The position numbers were made by a program, and so were the translations under genes. The notes under the pieces were generated by a model, which saw only the letters and a list, made by a program, of their open reading frames with translations, was not told the DNA's origin and made no database searches. A stretch of 64,000 nt of DNA from Mustelus asterias (lineage: Eukaryota), in contig NW_027590164.1 in NCBI RefSeq assembly GCF_964213995.1, positions 1-64,000 of the forward strand. Reading direction: 5' to 3'. Positions 2,274 to 42,582 of the stretch are shown here, in pieces; position 1 is the stretch's first letter; each line of letters opens with the position of its first letter.

Positions 2274-3323
2274 ACAGCACAGAAACAAGCCCTTTGGCCC
2301 TCCAAGCCTGTAGCAACCATGCTGCCCGTCTGAACTAAAACCCCCTACCTTTACGGGGACCATATCCCTCTATTCCTATGCTATTCATATATTTGTCAAG
2401 ACACATCTTAACGTCACTATCGTATCTGCTTCCACTACCTTCCCCGGCAACGAGTTCCAGGCACCCACCAACCTCTGTGTAAAGAACCTGCCTCGTACAT
2501 CTCCTTTAAACCATGCCCTTCACACCTGAAACCTATGCCCCTAGTAATTGACTCTTCCACCCTGGGAAAAAGCTTCTGACTATCCACTCTGTCCATGCCC
2601 CTCATAATCTTGTAGACTTCTATCAGGTTGCCCTCCTCAACCTCCGTTGTTCCAGTGAGAACAAACCAAGTTTCTCCAACCTCTCCTCATAGCTAATGCC
2701 CTCCACACCAGGCAACATCCTGATAAATATTTTCCGTACCCTCTCCAAAGCCTCCACATCCTTCTGGTAGTGTGGTGACCAGAATTGAACACTAGATTCC
2801 AAGTGCCGTCTAACTAAGGTTCTATAAAGCTGCAACATGACTTACCAATTTTTAAACTCAATGCCCCGGCCGATGAAGGCAAGCATGCCATATGCCTTCT
2901 TGATTAACTTCTCCACCTGCATTGCCACTTTCAATGACCTGTGTACCTGTACACCCAGATCCCTCTGCCTATGAATACTCTGAAGGGTTCTGCCGATAAC
3001 TGTATATTTCCCACCTGTATTAGACCTTCCAAAATGCATTACCTCACATTTGTCTGAATTAAACTCCATCTGCCATCTCTACGCCCAAGTCTCCAACTGA
3101 TCGATATCCTGCTGTATCCTCCGCCGGTCCCCATCGCTATCCGCAATTCCACCAACCTTTGTGTCATCCGCAAACTGACCAATCAAACCAGTTACATTTT
3201 CCTCCAAATCATTTATATATATATTACAAACAGCAAAAGTCCCAGCACTGATCCCTGAGGAATGTCACTTGTCACAGCCCTCCATTCAGAAATGTACCTT
3301 TGCAATGCCAACCTCTGTTTTCC
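2274..3323 (-). mobile_element. CR1 (HER1-like) LINE, 5'-truncated, decayed ORF2 C-terminus and 3'UTR
   Basis: ORF pieces PQGSVLG, MEFNSDKCEVMHFG, LYRTLVRRHLESSVQFWSP. Confidence 0.9.
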
Positions 3324-4821: not shown

Positions 4822-5310
4822 GGTGCAGGTGTCCTTACCTCTCTCTTGGGTGAACAATTAGTTGAAACTTCGTCCACACACAGAACAAGATTACAGTCTC
4901 TCCCCGCTGTGAATGGTGTGATATTTATTCAGACTGTGTAACTGGTTAAAGCTCTTTAGTCAGTGCATTGGAACACACTCACTCAAGTGTGGCAGTGTGT
5001 TGATGCTTTTTCACTCACACAGACATTTCAAATCTTTTCAAATCGACAGGCTGCACAATCATTTCTCCTTCTGGATTCAAAGTCCGATGATATTGAGGTC
5101 CCAAGGGATATGACTCTGTCAGATCGAGACGTGACGTCTGAGATTTCGGCCTGTGATTCCTCTTTCAATATCCTGTAAAATGAGTTTACAAAAGTCATCA
5201 GTGTCAGTACAGGATAGAAATTCAGAACAGACAATTTCTATGGAACATTCTTTCCTCTCTCATTCCCCAAAAGCTGTAAATCTCCATCCCACACACTCTC
5301 TCCCCATTCT

Positions 5311-5495
5311 CAGCAGGTCTGGCAGCATCTGCATGGAGAGAAAAGAACTGATGTTTCAGAGCTTTGACAAAGGGTCATCGAGACAAGAAACATCAGCTCT
5401 TTTCTCTCCTTACAGATGCTGCCAGACCTGCTGAAATTTTCCAGCATTTTCTCTCTTGGTTTCAGATTCCAGCATCCGCAGTAATTTGCTTTTAT
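5311..5495 (+). mobile_element. Short Penelope-like pLTR insert with inverted 5' segment
   Basis: 5311-5357 is an inverted copy of ~5387-5433; hammerhead-like 'agagctttgacaaagggtc...gaaacatcagctct'. Confidence 0.6.
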
Positions 5496-8510: not shown

Positions 8511-9382
8511 TCATTTAAAGAAGCATTCTTTGATGGCCTTTACCCCCATTGCTCCTTTCCAGAGCTTCCCACCTTCTGCTATTGTCCCTGACTCCCACAT
8601 TAACTGTCATTCCTTCCCTTTATCCCGCTCACATCCCGCTCGAAACTCAGGCTCAGAGTTTTCCCGCCATCTCCCCCTCCCCCAGCTCCCACATCCCAAC
8701 ACCCGGAATCTCTAACCCAGCGGTTCCAGTTTGTCTGGTTTGAGTTCAGATTTGCCGCAGCACCGACAGGATTTCACTTCAAACCAGCCGGAACTGACTG
8801 CTCACAAATCCCAAAATGTTTCTCCAGCAGCCCGGGCTTGTTAATGTTGTTTAAAGTCAGCGCCCAAATGCAGTTACTCTCCTCAGTTTAAAAAACTTCT
8901 CCGTTCAATCCAAAGTATTATTCGCACCAGACATAAACACAAAATTGTGAACGTTACCCACCGCCCCCCCCCCCCCGCCCCCCCAACCAGACCCGAGCTG
9001 GTGTGTCCTGAGTAAGAGACATCTGTTTCGGGTGTGACAATTCTTACACATTCTCTGGTTGACATAAAACGGAAAACGCTGGAAATTGCCCCCATTACCG
9101 AGACAGTGAGACAGAGATTACAAACACTCTTTTTTTTATTTCAAAAATATACTTTATTCACAAAAAAAACTCTCCAATAAAACATTGCAAAATGACAGAT
9201 CCAAAAGTCATAAACAGTGCAAAAAAGAATCATTTTTACAGTACAATACAGTGCTTATTGACAAAACATTACATTCATTACATTTCATTACTTAAAACTA
9301 TGTACATACATCAGAGTTTACTGTGTGCCGTTATTTATCAGGTTGGCACACAGTTACGCAGGCCGAGGGTATTCTGCAGTTA

Positions 9383-9818
9383 GAACATAGAACATAGAAC
9401 ATTACAGCGCAGAACAGGCCCTTCGGCCCACGATGTTGCACCGACCAGTTAAAAAAAAACTGTGACCCTCCAACCTAAACCAATTTCTTTTCGTCCATGA
9501 ACCTATCTACGGATCTCTTAAACGCCCCCAAACTAGGCGCATTTACTACTGATGCTGGCAGGGCATTCCAATCCCTCACCACCCTCTGGGTAAAGAACCT
9601 ATCCCTGACATCGGTTCTATAACTACCCCCCCTCAATTTAAAGCCATGCCCCCTCGTGCTGGATTTCTCCATCAGAGGAAAAAGGCTATCACTATCCACC
9701 CTATCTAAACCTCTAATCATCTTATATGTTTCAATAAGATCCCCTCTTAGCCGCCGCCTTTCCAGCGAAAACAATCCCAAATCCCTCAGCCTCTCCTCAT
9801 AGGATCTCCCCTCCATAC
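9383..9818 (-). mobile_element. CR1 3' fragment nested in the Tx1 3'UTR
   Basis: ERLRDLGLFSLERRRLRGDLIETYK; (agaacat)n tail; flanked by 'cagtta' at 9377-9382 and 9819-9824. Confidence 0.9.
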
Positions 9819-9856
9819 CAGTTACCCGGCCCTCGGTCTGCCTCGGTTGAGACGCT

Positions 9857-12800
9857 TTACACGGTGGCCTTTCCCCATTGTGCCTTGGCGGCGGCTGCCC
9901 CAAGCTTGAGCGCGTCCCTGAGCACAGAGTCCTGGACCTTGGAATGTGCCAGTCTGCAACACTCGGTCGAGGACAATTCTTTCAGCTGGAAGATCAGCAA
10001 GTTTCGGGCGCACCAAAGCACGTCCTCCACCGAGTTGATGACCCTCCAGCAGCAGTTGATATTTGTCTCGGTGTGCGTCCCCGGAAACAGCCCGTAGAGC
10101 ACAGAGTCCTGCGTCACCGAGCTGCCCGGGACGAACCGCGACAAATACCACTGCACCTCACTCCAGACCTTCTTTGCAAAGGCACATTCCACAAGGAGGT
10201 GTGCGACCGTCTCATCACCCCCGCAGCCGCTTCGAGAGCAGAGTGCGGTGAGGTTGAGACCCCGGGCGTGCATAAAGGATCTGACGGGGAGTGCCCTTCT
10301 CACCACCAGCCAAGCCAGGTCTTGGTGCTTGTTTGTGAGTTCTGGTGATGAGGCATTCTGCCAAATGACATTGACAGTCCGCTCAGGGAACCATCCGACA
10401 GGATCTGCCATCTCCTTTTCTCTCAGGGCCTCAAGGACATTACGTGCTGACCACTGCTTGATAGCCATGTGGTCAAAGGTGTGTTTCCGGAAGAATTTCT
10501 CCACGAAGGACAGGTGCTGCGGTACGGTCCAACTACTTGGAGCGTTCCGCGGCAATGTGGCCAGACCCATCCTCCGCAACACTTGGGACAGGTAGAACCT
10601 CAAAAAATAGTAGCACTTGCTGTTACTGTACCGAGGATCTACACACAGCTTGATGCAGCTGCACACAAAGGTGGCCATCAGGATGAGGGTGGCGTTGGGA
10701 ACGTTTTTCCCTTCATTCTCTGGAGATTTGTGCATCGCCTCCCTCCGGACACGATCCATCTTTGATCTCCAGATGAACTTAAAGATGGCCCGGGTCACTG
10801 CTGTTGCGCAGGACTTGGGGAGAGGCCACACCTGCGCCACGTACAACAACACGGACAGAACCTCGCATTGGATCACAAGGTTCTTCCCAGTGATGGAGAG
10901 GGAGCGTTGCTCCCACAATCCCAATTTTTGTCTGGCTTTGGCGATGCGCTCCTCCCAGTTTTTGGCGCATGCCCCTGCTGCTCCGAACCATATCCCCAGC
11001 ACCTTGAGGTAGTCTGCCCTAACGGTGAAGGGGGTAAAGGATGTGTCAGGCCAGTTCCCAAAGAACATGGCCTCACTCTTACCCTGGTTGACTTTGGCCC
11101 CCGAGGCCAGCTCGAACTGCTCACAGACTCGAAGAAGCCTGCGAACAGACGAGGGGTCCGAGCAGAAAACAGCCACGTCATCCATGTAGAGGGAGGCTTT
11201 AACTTGCGTCCCTCCGCTGCCTGGGATTGTAACCCCTTTGATGCCTGGGTCGCTTCTGAGGGCCTCGGCAAAGGGTTCAATGCAACACACAAAAAGGACG
11301 GAGGAGAGAGGGCAGCCCTGCCTGACTCCAGACCTGATTTGAAACATATCTGATTCCCACCCATTGATTGAAACTGCGCTACTGATGTCTGTGTAGAGCA
11401 GTTGGATCCAAATGCGGATTCCCTCCCCAAAGCCCATTTTGGAGAGCACATCCATCATGTAGCTGTGCGATATTCTGTCAAACGCCTTCTCCTGGTCTAG
11501 ACTGATGAGGCAGGTGTCCACCTGCCTGTCCTGCACGTTCGGCGATCGTATCCCTGAGTAGCGCGAGGCTATCAGAGATCTTCCTGCCGGGTACAGCACA
11601 GGTTTGATCAGGATGGATCACTGACCCCAGAGCAGACTTGACCCGGTTGGCGATGACCTTGGCCAGAATCTTGTAATCCACATTCAATAGTGAAATAGGT
11701 CTCCAATTTCTAATTTCTTCCCATTCCCCCTTCTGCTTGTAGATGAGGGTAATGATGCCTTTCCTCATGGATTCTGACATGCTGCCTTCCAGAAGCATAC
11801 TCTCGTATACTTCCAGGAGGTCCGGGCCCGTCAAGTCCCACAACGCCGAGTAAAACTCAGCCGGTAAGCCGTCGCTACCGGGAGTTTTACCCTTCTGAAG
11901 GGACTCGATGCCCTTTGTCAGCTCATCCAGAGCTACCGGTCTGTCCAGGCTCTCCCGCTCGCCGTCGTCCATGACTTGCGTGATGGACGACAGGAAAGAC
12001 TGGGAGGCCGTGCTGTCTGTTGGCTTCAGGTCATACAGTCCGGCATAGAAGGATTTGCAGATCCTCAGAATGTCAGACTGCGATGACCCTACAGAGCCAT
12101 CTTCTTCCTTCAGGCTTGTGATCACAGAGGATTCTCTGTGCACCTTCTGGAAGAAGAAGCGCGAGCACGTTTCGTCCTGCTCCACGGAGCGGACCCTGGA
12201 CCGGAAGATAACCTTGGAGGCCTCCGAGGCAAAGAGCGAGGCTTGCTGGCTCTTCACCTCCCGGAGGTCCTCCTTGACATCCACCCCCATCGACTGCAGT
12301 TGGAGTAGCTCCTGCATGCTTTTCTGGAGTCGGGACATTTCCCCCCGTCTCTCCCTGGCCTTCTGAACCCCTTTTCGGATGAAGAACCTCTTGATGTTGC
12401 CCTTGATGGTTTCCCACCAGAGCGATGGAGACTCAAAGAAGGGTTTCACGGTTCTCCAACCGTGGTAAACCCTCTTGAGTTCCTCGAGGTTCTCTGGGGT
12501 CAACAGTTCTACATTAAGCTTCCAGGACCCCCTGCCCACTTTCTGGTTTTCCTCCAGCTGACAGTCTGCCAGCAGGAGGCAGTGGTCAGAGAAGAACACC
12601 GGCTTGACGTCGGTGGACCTGACCGTGAGCGCGCGGGATGCAAACATGAAGTCGATCCTGGAGCGGACAGACCCGTCTGGCCGCGACCACGTGTATCTAC
12701 GCTGCCCTCCGTCTGCTGGTTTGCTGAAGACGTCGAGCAGCTTGGCATCTTTGACTGTTTCCAGCAGGGCTCTGGATGTAGCGTCCAGTTTACTCTCGGC

Positions 12801-13266
12801 CCTGTTGGACCGGCCGGCCTTGTCAATGATGCAGTTAAAGTCCCCACCCAGTATGATTGGCCTGGAGGTGGTGAGTAGCAGTGGCAGCTGTTCGAAGAGT
12901 GCCAGCCGCTCGGTCTTGACGGCAGGGGCATACACATTGATCAGCCTGAGAGGGCAGTTTTTGTACGTGACATCTGCTACGAGGAGGCGTCCTCCCACCA
13001 CGTCCTTAACTTCGGAGATGGTGAAGTTGCCCCCCCCGCAGCAGAATGCCTAGGCCGGATGAACGGCAGTCGTTCCCACCTGACCAGATGGACGGTCCGT
13101 GGGACCACACACTCGACCAGCGCCTGTAGTTGCTGAGGTGTGGTATTCCACACTCCTGCAGGAACAGCAGGTCGGCCTTGACCTTGGCCAGGTAGGACAA
13201 GCTGGCCGCACATCTCAGGCTGTCTTTAACACTGCAAACATTTAAGGATGCAAACTTTAAAGACAT
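9857..13266 (-). pseudogene. Tx1 ORF2 (APE endonuclease, RT, Cys/His finger), split by two frameshifts (~13035 in a C-run, and ~11540)
   Basis: ASLNV, FLQE, GGDFN, RIDF, SDH (APE); NWRPISLLNVDYKI, LDQEKAFD, GVRQGCPLS, YMDD (RT); CSRSGC..ETVAHLLVEC. Confidence 0.92.
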
Positions 13267-13634
13267 TTTAATGTTTAAGAGGTTTGTCAGTTCTTACGTG
13301 TCCTTCAGTCAGCCTCCTCCAGGTGCTGCATTCCTGTGGCGCTGACGAAATTCTGCAGGGCTGCAGGGCTGAGGTAGCAGTCCGACCCTGCGTCAGGGCC
13401 CCGACCACGACTGGGTGACATGGTCGGTGTCGTGTAGCCCTCGGTTGGTGCTGGGCTTGCGGCCCGGTCTCCGCCTTGGGCGTTGTCGGTGTCCTCGTTC
13501 CTGCTGTCCGGGGCTTCGGGGGCCTCGGCCGCACTGCTGCATCCGTCGGCTGGATGGTCCCCGGCTGCTTTGTGGCCGTTGGTCCGAGTCCATTGTGGTT
13601 CCCGTGCCGCTTTCCTAATGCGCCGTTTGAGGCT

Positions 13635-14684
13635 TTATCGGTTGCCCGCTTTCTTTTCCTCGTCTGAGGAGACGTCGCCACTGGAGACCCTAGCTGCGCA
13701 GGATTTCCTTTTCTGGGTTCTTTTCTTTTTCTTTACCACCTGCCAGGGGCCCTCGGGATCTCCGTTCTCCTGCTCCATGTCCTCTGCGCCCTCTGCTGGT
13801 GGTGGTGTGGATGTGTCATCATCCTGCTGCACTCGGGGGTCCACCTTTGCTTCAGAAGCTTTCTCCGTGCCAGGATCTTTTGCGGTGGGCTTCTTGTTCC
13901 CTGAGGCGGCAGGAGCACTCGCCTTCCTCGCTCCGCCTCCGGTGATCTGGGCGTACGTGACCTTCCGCTTGGGGCAGACTCTGTATACATGGCCAGTCTC
14001 CCCACACAGGTTGCAACTTTTGCTTTCTTTGCACTCGTCGGTCGAGTGCCCCTCCTTCAGGCAGTTTCTGCATACCGTGACGGTGCAGCTCGCGGCAAAA
14101 TGGCCGGTTTTGCCACAGTTGCGGCACAGTCGTGGCTGGCCCCTGTAGTACAGGAAGCCTCGATTCCCTCCGATGGTAAAATTGGAGGTCGGGTGCAGAA
14201 GGCCTCCCTTGGGGTCGGTCTTCAGGGTGACTCTCACTTGCCTATTACAGGTCCATATTCCATACTGGTCCATGACGTCCACGCTCTCTCCCTTCACCTC
14301 CACGTACCTGGAGAGGAACGTCAGCACATCAGCCGCAGGGACGAAGTGGTTATACATATGAAATGTGATAACCCGGTTCCGCTGGGACGGCATGGTGAAC
14401 AGGGGCTCCGCCGTCAGGATAGAGAGGGGCCCCTCTTTGCCTTTCTCCTTCACCGCTGTCAGGAGCTTGAGGCATCCTGACAGGCTCCTGAAGCTGACAT
14501 CCACGTGCGGCGGCTTGCTGTACTCAGCCACACCGTAGACGTCTGCTGCTTGGAATCCGCAGCACTCGAACAATACCTTCTTCACGAGGTAGTCGCGGCC
14601 CACAGGCGAGCCTCCTCCCGAAGCCTTCACCCGGATGGTGTTGGGCTGCCTTTGGCCTGTAGCTTTCAGAGCAGCTGCAGCCAT
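13635..14684 (-). CDS. Tx1 ORF1, gag-like protein with three CCHC zinc knuckles (C-terminus probably frameshifted, continuing to ~13268)
   Basis: CRNCGKTGHFAASC, CRNCLKEGHSTDEC, CNLCGETGHVYRVC; lies directly upstream of ORF2. Confidence 0.85.
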   Translation of the reverse strand: MAAAALKATGQRQPNTIRVKASGGGSPVGRDYLVKKVLFECCGFQAADVYGVAEYSKPPHVDVSFRSLSGCLKLLTAVKEKGKEGPLSILTAEPLFTMPSQRNRVITFHMYNHFVPAADVLTFLSRYVEVKGESVDVMDQYGIWTCNRQVRVTLKTDPKGGLLHPTSNFTIGGNRGFLYYRGQPRLCRNCGKTGHFAASCTVTVCRNCLKEGHSTDECKESKSCNLCGETGHVYRVCPKRKVTYAQITGGGARKASAPAASGNKKPTAKDPGTEKASEAKVDPRVQQDDDTSTPPPAEGAEDMEQENGDPEGPWQVVKKKKRTQKRKSCAARVSSGDVSSDEEKKAGNR

Positions 14685-14877
14685 AGCTCGATAACACTGA
14701 GTCTTGCTGTACCGGCGTTAGGTCCAAGCCAGAGGCTTGAAACCAGCATAAAGATCCACCAGTAGCAGCAGAGCTCAAGTGTTGTAGACGGTCGTCTGCC
14801 GGTCGTCTGACGCCTGCTTCTTCAATCCACAATCCCCATCGAAACTCGATAGCTCCTTGCGAAATCCGAGCCCTTGG

Positions 14878-14909
14878 CACTTGATCTTAGCCAAAAGGCC
14901 AAGCAGCAT
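14878..14909 (-). ncRNA. U2 snRNA 5' fragment (nt ~1-33), not a full gene
   Basis: Minus strand reads ATGCTGCTTGGCCTTTTGGCTAAGATCAAGTG versus U2 ATCGCTTCTCGGCCTTTTGGCTAAGATCAAGTG (23-nt exact match). Confidence 0.9.
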
Positions 14910-14919
14910 GTGCATTCAA

Positions 14920-15390
14920 TTTTGATTTGATTTATTGTCAAATGTATTGGGATCCACTGAAAAGTATTGTTTCTTGCACGCTATACAGACAAAGCATACC
15001 TTTCATGGAGTACATGGGGAGAAGGAAAGGATAGGGTGCAGGTACAGGTAGGGTGAAGAGAAAGATCAGCTTAATATATGATAGGACCATTCAAACATGA
15101 CAGTAAGGAAGAAGTTGTTCTTGAGTCGTTTGGTACATGTTTTCAGACTTTTGCATAAATTTACTGAGAAGGTGGTGGTAAGCTGCCTTCCTTCAGTCCA
15201 TGTGTTATAGGTACACCCATAGTGCTGTTAGGGAGGGAATTACAGGATTTTGATCCAGTGACAATGAAGGAACGGTGATGTATTTCCAAGTTAGGAAGGT
15301 GTGTGGCTAGGAGGGGAATTTCCAGCAGGTGGTGTTCCCATCTGTCTGCTGTCCTTGTCCTTCTAGATGATGGTGGTTGTGTGTGTGGGA
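14920..15390 (-). mobile_element. Decayed LINE 3' fragments
   Basis: 'tttgatttgatttattgtca' tail; 15170-15390 matches 43670-43890. Confidence 0.55.
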
Positions 15391-40885: not shown

Positions 40886-41164
40886 TCACATTGTGTGGTG
40901 ACATCATCCCCGCTCCCTGGGGATTTCCTCAACGAGGAGATTTTTCTCTGTCTGTTGGGAGATTCTGTTAAAGTTGTGGTTTAGTTGCGGGACTGAATTT
41001 GCAGCCCTTCCACGAGTGGGATCTTCCATTCCAGCTGATGGTGACCGTCCGAGGCAGTTTCCCAGCAGCACGGCCAGTGATCAATGCAAAATGCCAATGG
41101 GGGAGGGGTGAAAACCCCAGCTGTGCATGTATTCAATCCCTTTCTATCGCCATCTACCTATTGT

Positions 41165-42295
41165 CTGTCTCTCACACACCCACTCTCTCTCTCTCACACT
41201 CTCTCTCCCTCACACAAACATTATCACACACTCTCACACACACCTTCCCTCTCACACACACCTTCCCTCTCACACACACCTTCCCTCTCTCACATACACC
41301 TTCCCTCTCACACACACCTTCCCTCACACACACACCTTCCCTCACACACACACACCTTCCCTCTCACACACACACCTTCCCTCTCACACACACACACCTT
41401 CCCTCTCACACACACACACCTTCCCTCTCACACACACACACACACCTTCCCTCTCACACACACACACTTTCCCTCTCACACACACACCTTCCCTCTCACA
41501 CACACACCTTCCCTCTCTCACACACACCTTCCCTCTCACACACACACCTTCCCTCTCACACACACACCTTCCCTCTCACACACACACCTTCCCTCTCACA
41601 CACACACCTTCCCTCTCACACACACACCTTCCCTCTCACACACACACCTTCCCTCTCACACACACACCTTCCCTCTCACACACACCTTCCCTCACACGCA
41701 CACCTTCCCTCACACGCACACCTTCCCTCTCACCTGCACACCTTTCCTCTCACACACACACCTTCCCTCTCACACACACACCTTCCCTCTCACACACACA
41801 CCTTCCCTCTCACACACACACCTTCCCTCTCACACACACACCTTCCCTCTCACACACACACCTTCCCTCTCACACACACCTTCCCTCTCACACACACCTT
41901 CCCTCACACACACACCTTCCCTCTCACACACACCTCCCCTCTCACACACACCTTCCCTCTCACACACACCTCCCATCTCACGCACACCTTTCCTCTCACA
42001 CACACACCTTCCCTCTCACACACACACCTCCCCTCTCACGCACACCTTCGCTCTCACGCACACCTTCCCTCTCACGCACACCTCCGCTCTCACGCACACC
42101 TTCCCTCTCACACACCTTCCCTCTCACACACACCTTCCCTCTCACACACCTTCCCTCTCACACACACCTCCCCTCTCACACACACGCACTCCCCCCCTCG
42201 CACACGCACTCCCCCCCTTGCACGCTCACTTTCCCCCTCGCATGCGTACTCTCCCTCTCACGCGCGCTCTCCCTCAAACACAAACTCTCTCCCTC
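41165..42295. repeat. Compound microsatellite/minisatellite [CCTTCCCTCT(CA)n], ~1.1 kb, in the ZNF-F intron
   Basis: Directly visible; unit ~16-26 bp with variable CA number. Confidence 0.97.
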
Positions 42296-42582
42296 CCTCT
42301 TTGCTCCTCCCATAAAGGTGAACCAGTTGGGTTTTTATGACAATCCAGCAGTTTTCCATGGTCACTTTTTCCTCGTTCCGGCCCCACAAATGGCCAATCA
42401 ACCTCAGATTGATTCATTCCGCTCAATTTCACAATCTCCCTTTGAGTTTTTGTGGGTTCTCTCTCACTCCCATTTTGCTGTTTTAAATCTGTTTCACAGG
42501 ATGTTAGAAGGAGAGGATTTGGAGTTGGGAAATTGAAACCAAACATCGCATCAGGATCTAATACAGACCGATTTTATCGTAA

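Follow-up and report, generated by a model that had tools for sequence, protein, structure and literature searches.

Why does a retrotransposon that lies outside any U2 gene begin with the 5′ end of U2 snRNA? The case comes from the window, a stretch of 64,000 nucleotides of the Mustelus asterias genome (contig NW_027590164.1, positions 1 to 64,000; genome 3.68 Gb), in a zinc-finger-cluster-like region with 84-nt repeat arrays. The sequence-only reading of this DNA saw a Tx1 element headed by U2 nt 1 to 33 and offered two explanations: a master copy in a U2 gene is transcribed from the U2 promoter and its complete chimeric RNA was retroposed here, or the family has fixed the U2 head. Our comparison of genomic copies suggests that this copy is a dead recombinant of a Keno-type Tx1 family, that a head of U2 nt 1-35 (1-33 in the subfamily of the window copy) is fixed in the family, and that its RNA probably comes from the U2 promoter of copies lying in register with U2 genes. 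We are highly confident of the family assignment and of a head carried by the RNA.

Read on the minus strand, window positions 14907-14878 match nt 4-33 of the same genome's U2 gene at 28 of 30 bases (blastn E 2e-7). The local score of this piece is 50, whereas the best score reached in 30 shuffles of the window was 30, and no second convincing U2 piece was found elsewhere in the window. The head directly precedes a full-length two-ORF LINE, so the earlier claim that a U2 5′ end heads the element stands. The features are as follows.

14908..15100, minus strand: 5′ host flank, the tail of an older repeat and not a U2 promoter region (basis: empty site L164)
14878..14907, minus strand: U2 snRNA-derived head, U2 nt 4-33, short-head subfamily, with 14907 common to head and flank (basis: 28/30 identity and the empty site)
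14685..14877, minus strand: 5′ UTR of 193 nt, 53% GC with 12 CpG, starting with a remnant of the head-complementary arm
13305..14684, minus strand: ORF1, two ZCCHC3-type RNA-binding domains and CCHC knuckles, premature stop at 13637-13635
9857..13266, minus strand: ORF2, AP-type endonuclease, RT and zf-RVT, frameshifts at about 13037 and 11539
9383..9819, minus strand: later insertion of 437 nt in the 3′ UTR, missing from the duplicates L101 and L107; we take it to be the 3′ end of another LINE, CR1-like
9130..9382, minus strand: remaining 3′ UTR, with AATAAA at 9158-9153 and the A-tail at 9137-9130 (basis: alignment of family 3′ ends)
9000..9129, minus strand: 3′ host flank, beginning inside a splice-donor-like motif of a repeated zinc-finger-cluster unit

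On the minus strand, the element thus spans 14907 to 9130. Pfam identifies the N-terminal AP-type endonuclease, RT and zf-RVT of ORF2 (PF03372, PF00078, PF13966) and the ORF1 domains (PF23057/8, PF00098), and the element is 5.3 kb long with two ORFs. ORF1 is open at 459 aa in the duplicate L107 and ORF2 at 1135 aa in L083; in no copy are both ORFs open together, among the 29 for which both ends are present. An Rfam search over the window missed U2, the head being too short a piece, and matched no ribozyme family; its matches to microRNA families lay under the gathering score. Matches of this sub-threshold kind fall on a long hairpin at 5308-5436, which belongs to a repeat occurring five times in the window.

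The exact limits of the head differ from those first proposed. The motif of the 5′ flank has five exact genomic matches, four of them duplicates of the window junction and the fifth a paralogous empty site (L164) that lacks U2 sequence. At L164 the leading ATG (14909-14907), which had been read as U2 nt 1-3, is host DNA, so the head of the window copy starts not at nt 1 but at nt 4, a G common with the flank, or at nt 5. The 3′ limit at nt 33 is right for this copy and wrong as the usual junction of the family: long heads, with 44 exact genomic matches, join at U2 nt 35 and continue with 11 bases that are missing from the 8 short-head copies. The +33 junction of the short-head subfamily results from this 11-nt deletion, and no special meaning of a junction at the branch-point recognition sequence is supported.

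Retroposition of one complete chimeric RNA at this site is not supported for the window copy. The motif of its 3′ flank has 172 exact matches, and 28 of 30 fetched loci are empty sites continuing into different upstream DNA, so the 5′ and 3′ flanks match two different empty sites. All four combinations of two 5′ flanks with two 3′ flanks were found. Alleles at diagnostic sites (several others were uninformative) switch in the same way: the window copy, L101 and L107 agree with the short heads at 799, 896, 2050 and 2821 and with the long heads at 3262, 3448, 3754 and 5197, and L099 is roughly reciprocal to them. The subfamily switch in the window copy lies about 3 kb into the element. Judged from these flanks and alleles, the copy is a recombinant of two insertions, which is why no TSD was found around it. 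It is a dead recombinant, without functional interest of its own. The 5′ flank is an older-repeat tail without a PSE-like motif, and both parental 3′ flanks are non-U2. The absence of remaining U2 sequence after the poly(A) holds, with no U2 nt 38+ behind the tail.

In the window (9129) and in the paralogs L134-L163, the 3′ insertion point falls in the splice-donor-like motif mentioned above, which belongs to a unit present at least 172 times in zinc-finger clusters. These clusters have been reshuffled by recombination between element copies.

The family was sampled with a 16-nt 5′-UTR pattern that is independent of the head (47 genomic matches, 0 in the control). All 47 copies, 16 in a tandem array and 31 others, carry the U2 head; they collapse to about 22 distinct 5′ junctions once duplicates are merged. 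Six further long-head copies were located by the junction pattern and inspected. No headless full-length copy, the finding that the sequence-only reading had named as fatal to its proposal, occurs among the 47, and fixation of the head in the family is borne out. The start of the head varies from U2 nt 1 to 12, and most dispersed copies miss 1-11 nt. No head at a dispersed site continues past +1 into shared sequence. An extra G, perhaps cap-derived, or common upstream bases seem to precede +1 in a few element copies; no dominant base before +1 was apparent by eye in the 100 matches listed out of 884, and TSD calls on 30 loci were noisy.

Might the head be added anew each time, by a reverse transcriptase that switches template onto U2 snRNA? 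Variable 5′ additions to SINEU-2 are ascribed to such switching in Kojima 2015 (PMC4494074), and one copy here, L085, has a junction that differs from the others. The junction is nevertheless invariant inside each subfamily (44 exact long-head matches, 8 short-head copies), the junction type follows the tree, and the absence of headless full-length copies among the 47 counts against repeated addition. These fixed junctions largely refute template switching as the source of the head, which we consider highly improbable, and occasional switching is possible. L085 itself lies at a non-U2 site and has U2 10-59 within a perfect 17-nt TSD. This form is the one expected from read-through of a U2-gene insertion; a switch of template to U2 snRNA might also have produced it. 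Another unusual copy, L080, was considered as a transduced double head and rejected; its 3′ flank holds inverted U2 40-191, and it is probably a rearranged U2 locus.

Target-site duplications show that the head arrives with the element. Among 15 singly occurring dispersed copies, 13 have both ends: 8 show TSDs of 12-25 nt, 1 has a TSD of 5 nt, 3 have none, and 1 is ambiguous because a U2-headed SINE follows the copy. Of the 8 copies with TSDs of at least 12 nt, 7, at non-U2 sites, have the head between the two TSD copies and not in the adjacent 3′ flank. Because these TSDs enclose head and element together, the head must travel in the element RNA. They count against the idea that the head is target DNA, with elements inserting into existing U2 fragments or U2-headed SINEs and drawing their RNA from assorted upstream promoters, and so does L164, the empty counterpart of the window's 5′ flank, which is free of U2 sequence. 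A few copies (L084, L088 and the L103 group) do adjoin U2-headed SINEs or U2-like target sequence, as that idea predicts; we find it quite unlikely.

The 3′ ends connect the family to Keno. The genome holds 13 junctions of poly(A) with U2 nt 39, at least 8 of which are ends of the window element's family and others SINE ends; the 3′ target of Keno is described as beginning at U2 nt 39 (PMC6136364, PMC4640811). The U2 +38/39 junction is thus found in the family, though not at the window copy itself, and a U2 likeness of the window's own 3′ flank (only 2 of 12 matches) was not upheld. Tabulated over 42 distinct 3′ flanks (identical ones collapsed, the sample biased to window-like copies), only 3 are of the U2 +38/39 type. 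The flanks are heterogeneous, and no common motif of off-target sites was found over the 42. They contain no U1 match and no match of six histone peptide motifs, a weak test of insertion near U1 or histone starts, and Rfam found no U1 in 20 loci. The strict U2-gene specificity of Keno does not apply to this family. With at least 8 copies ending exactly at the Keno site and most copies elsewhere, it is best described as a Keno-type Tx1 with relaxed targeting.

None of the named Keno, Kibi, Koshi or Tx1L elements is among the best 120 RT matches. A scan of metagenome contigs gave 5 poly(A)-U2 junctions, 2 of them with full-length Tx1 elements at U2 +38 whose ORF2 is open (L227 and L231). In L227 the in-register join is at U2 nt 26, and in L231 U2 38-50 is duplicated. 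Their RTs are 45% and 43% identical to that of the window element, respectively. An RT falling outside the U2-associated Tx1 families, which would have spoken against the first reading, was not seen: the window RT lies inside the smallest clade holding both L227 and L231 (109 of 123 ingroup rows, SH 0.97), a weak test because the sample is the best 120 matches and the root is one distant RT.

Several known systems resemble the family in part. Keno shares the AP-endonuclease and RT, the two ORFs and the 3′ junction at U2 +38/39 with its quoted target (PMC6136364, PMC4640811, PMC4494074); unlike Keno, most copies of the window family lie outside U2 genes without a U2-like site motif, and a U2 head is part of the element itself. 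L231 differs as well in having only host U2 1-50 and no second head. U2-headed Tx1 elements are already known in crocodilians, where Tx1-11_Crp belongs to a group clustering with Keno (PMC4494074). By its description there, this Tx1-Mar element is likewise autonomous, co-clusters with Keno and has a U2-derived 5′ head, but it prefers a Mariner transposon target, whereas the window family still hits U2 +38 and has in-register copies. SINEU-1/2/3 have snRNA heads and poly(A) tails and are mobilised by Tx1; they are non-autonomous and stated to be crocodilian-only (PMC4494074), whereas the window element is autonomous, 5.3 kb long and accompanied by a U2-headed SINE. Utopia uses the same U2 site, and some of its families have weakened specificity, but it has a restriction-like endonuclease and one ORF (PMC4640811) in place of the N-terminal AP-type endonuclease and two ORFs seen here. 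Our literature search turned up no U2-headed Keno or SINEU in cartilaginous fish; Repbase entries, the 2004 Keno paper or the SINEU supplementary alignments may already describe one. Nor did this literature search turn up a family that combines a U2 head and continued U2 targeting with mostly dispersed copies and candidate masters in register.

Insertions in U2 genes take two forms. In the first, host U2 is kept to nt 53 or 58 and is followed by a second head, with a TSD from nt 38 (L094 and the C24 array). At C24:44.81-44.94 Mb an 8,035-bp unit is repeated in tandem in 16 copies, each in the order intact U2 gene, truncated spacer, double-headed element and U2 38-191; this array is one insertion amplified along with the U2 array. 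In the second form there is a single head, in register with the upstream DNA of the gene. Searching for copies behind U2 upstream DNA, as had been proposed, turned up three of these (C21:28058320, C21:28080920 and L172), all in a variant U2 gene type that is 89% identical to the main array. Their upstream DNA is common to uninterrupted U2 genes of the same cluster. The variant genes (G000:C21:28.045-28.082 Mb, also L172, L175, L177, L178 and L179) have their own upstream sequence and a spacing of about 450 bp, and the cluster is heavily occupied by the element and the U2-headed SINE, with uninterrupted copies also present.

We regard these three in-register copies as candidate masters. The dispersed copy L083 is sister to C21:28080920 (UFBoot 100, 0.97% non-CpG distance), and the 5′ half of the window copy groups with the C21 copies (UFBoot 95), its subfamily holding two in-register copies; in this tree a sister position gives no direction and recombinant copies distort the topology. 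Among the 44 long-head copies, L172 alone is in register. It is about 6% diverged and incomplete, and the young long-head majority is therefore without a visible master. A PSE-like motif at -52 of the variant U2 aligns with a -51 motif in 2 of 3 U1 variants, though the motif was defined only once the sequences had been inspected, and the main U2 array gave no match to it. Neither U2 type showed an octamer in the 260 nt upstream.

The head could have been captured once and now be part of an L1-like internal promoter, any full-length copy then being a possible master and the U2-gene copies reflecting residual targeting. The 193-nt UTR with its 12 CpG, the dispersal of most copies and the lack of a young in-register long-head copy all fit such a promoter. 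Such a promoter would, however, have to start transcription precisely at U2 +1, outside the end of the original element on its upstream side; the loss of 1-11 nt in most dispersed copies should erode the head over generations; and the companion SINE, about 330 nt long, shares this kind of head and also has in-register copies, without such a UTR. We judge an internal promoter unlikely on balance, and transcription from the U2 promoter of in-register copies to be the probable source of the RNA. Because the head is fixed, insertion occurs at the Keno site and in-register copies exist, the two explanations first offered, a master in a U2 gene and a family-fixed head, are probably one mechanism.

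The proposed cycle would run as follows. Transcription from a U2 promoter would start at U2 +1 and run through head and element. Most of the resulting cDNAs would integrate off target, giving daughters without a promoter. At a hit on U2 +38, the head cDNA would anneal to the 5′ part of the nicked U2 gene or, alternatively, two tandem heads would recombine later; either event would rebuild promoter, head and element as a new master. In the main subfamily, the bases behind the head are predicted to fold back and would mask the U2 pairing region. Folding of the head with its following bases gives z values of -4.1 and -4.2 in long heads and -3.9 in a SINE head; short heads reach -0.6 and -1.0, and a third head type -1.25. 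Short heads do not fold back on the U2 piece, so the fold-back is not required; masking by long heads is a possible, dispensable feature.

R2 targets rDNA, encodes a restriction-like endonuclease and contains a ribozyme. The window element differs in its AP-type endonuclease, and no ribozyme family matched the window. If the cycle holds, the likeness to R2 would lie in co-transcription from the target gene and in target sequence on the RNA that aids integration (cited in PMC4494074).

A stronger version of this model, which we put forward tentatively and with some doubt, would deny the element any promoter of its own. Its only masters would be in-register U2-gene fusions, chiefly of the variant U2 type; the snRNA promoter would make a 5.3-kb polyadenylated coding RNA; the head would rebuild a master at each U2-gene hit; and the fold-back arm would conceal the region where U2 pairs. 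Such a loop would also account for the transcription of SINEU-type elements, including the local SINE with its more than 2,400 motif matches. For transcription from a U2 promoter there is a real obstacle. Elongation from snRNA promoters is reported to be poor (PMC3337830), and these promoters reportedly tend to disregard poly(A) signals (PMC2241894), two properties that would hinder a 5.3-kb polyadenylated RNA. Polyadenylated RNA was nonetheless recovered from a U1 promoter construct (PMC2241894).

How snRNA-headed elements are transcribed is a question because snRNA promoters lie upstream of the RNA. Kojima 2015 left it open, suggesting flanking promoters for SINEU (PMC4494074). The candidate master loci named here, for an autonomous element and its SINE, make the question testable. 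If the model is true, a long translated RNA is made from an snRNA promoter, contrary to what is reported of these promoters in general, and an element with a specific target can afford to give up most of that specificity provided that it occasionally returns to U2 genes.

The companion SINE (L105, L084, L185-L196) contains two U2 pieces and a fold-back arm. An 18-nt motif of its body has 2,436 exact genomic matches, and 11 of 12 sampled copies have the U2 head, which is truncated in the twelfth. Insertions of the SINE are seen at U2 +38, in tandem with the element, and behind U2 genes of both types, in register with them (L175, L178, L114). Compared with a perfect complement, the antisense arm of the SINE head (L105, L209) shows mostly A-to-G and C-to-T changes that keep G-U pairs, which could reflect hairpin editing or selection on structure. 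Elsewhere in the window, a tandem array at 41130-42500 with a period of 18-20 nt has long open frames on the plus strand. A third short repeat, seen at L198 and L115, is headed by U2 1-34 and has other sequence after the head.
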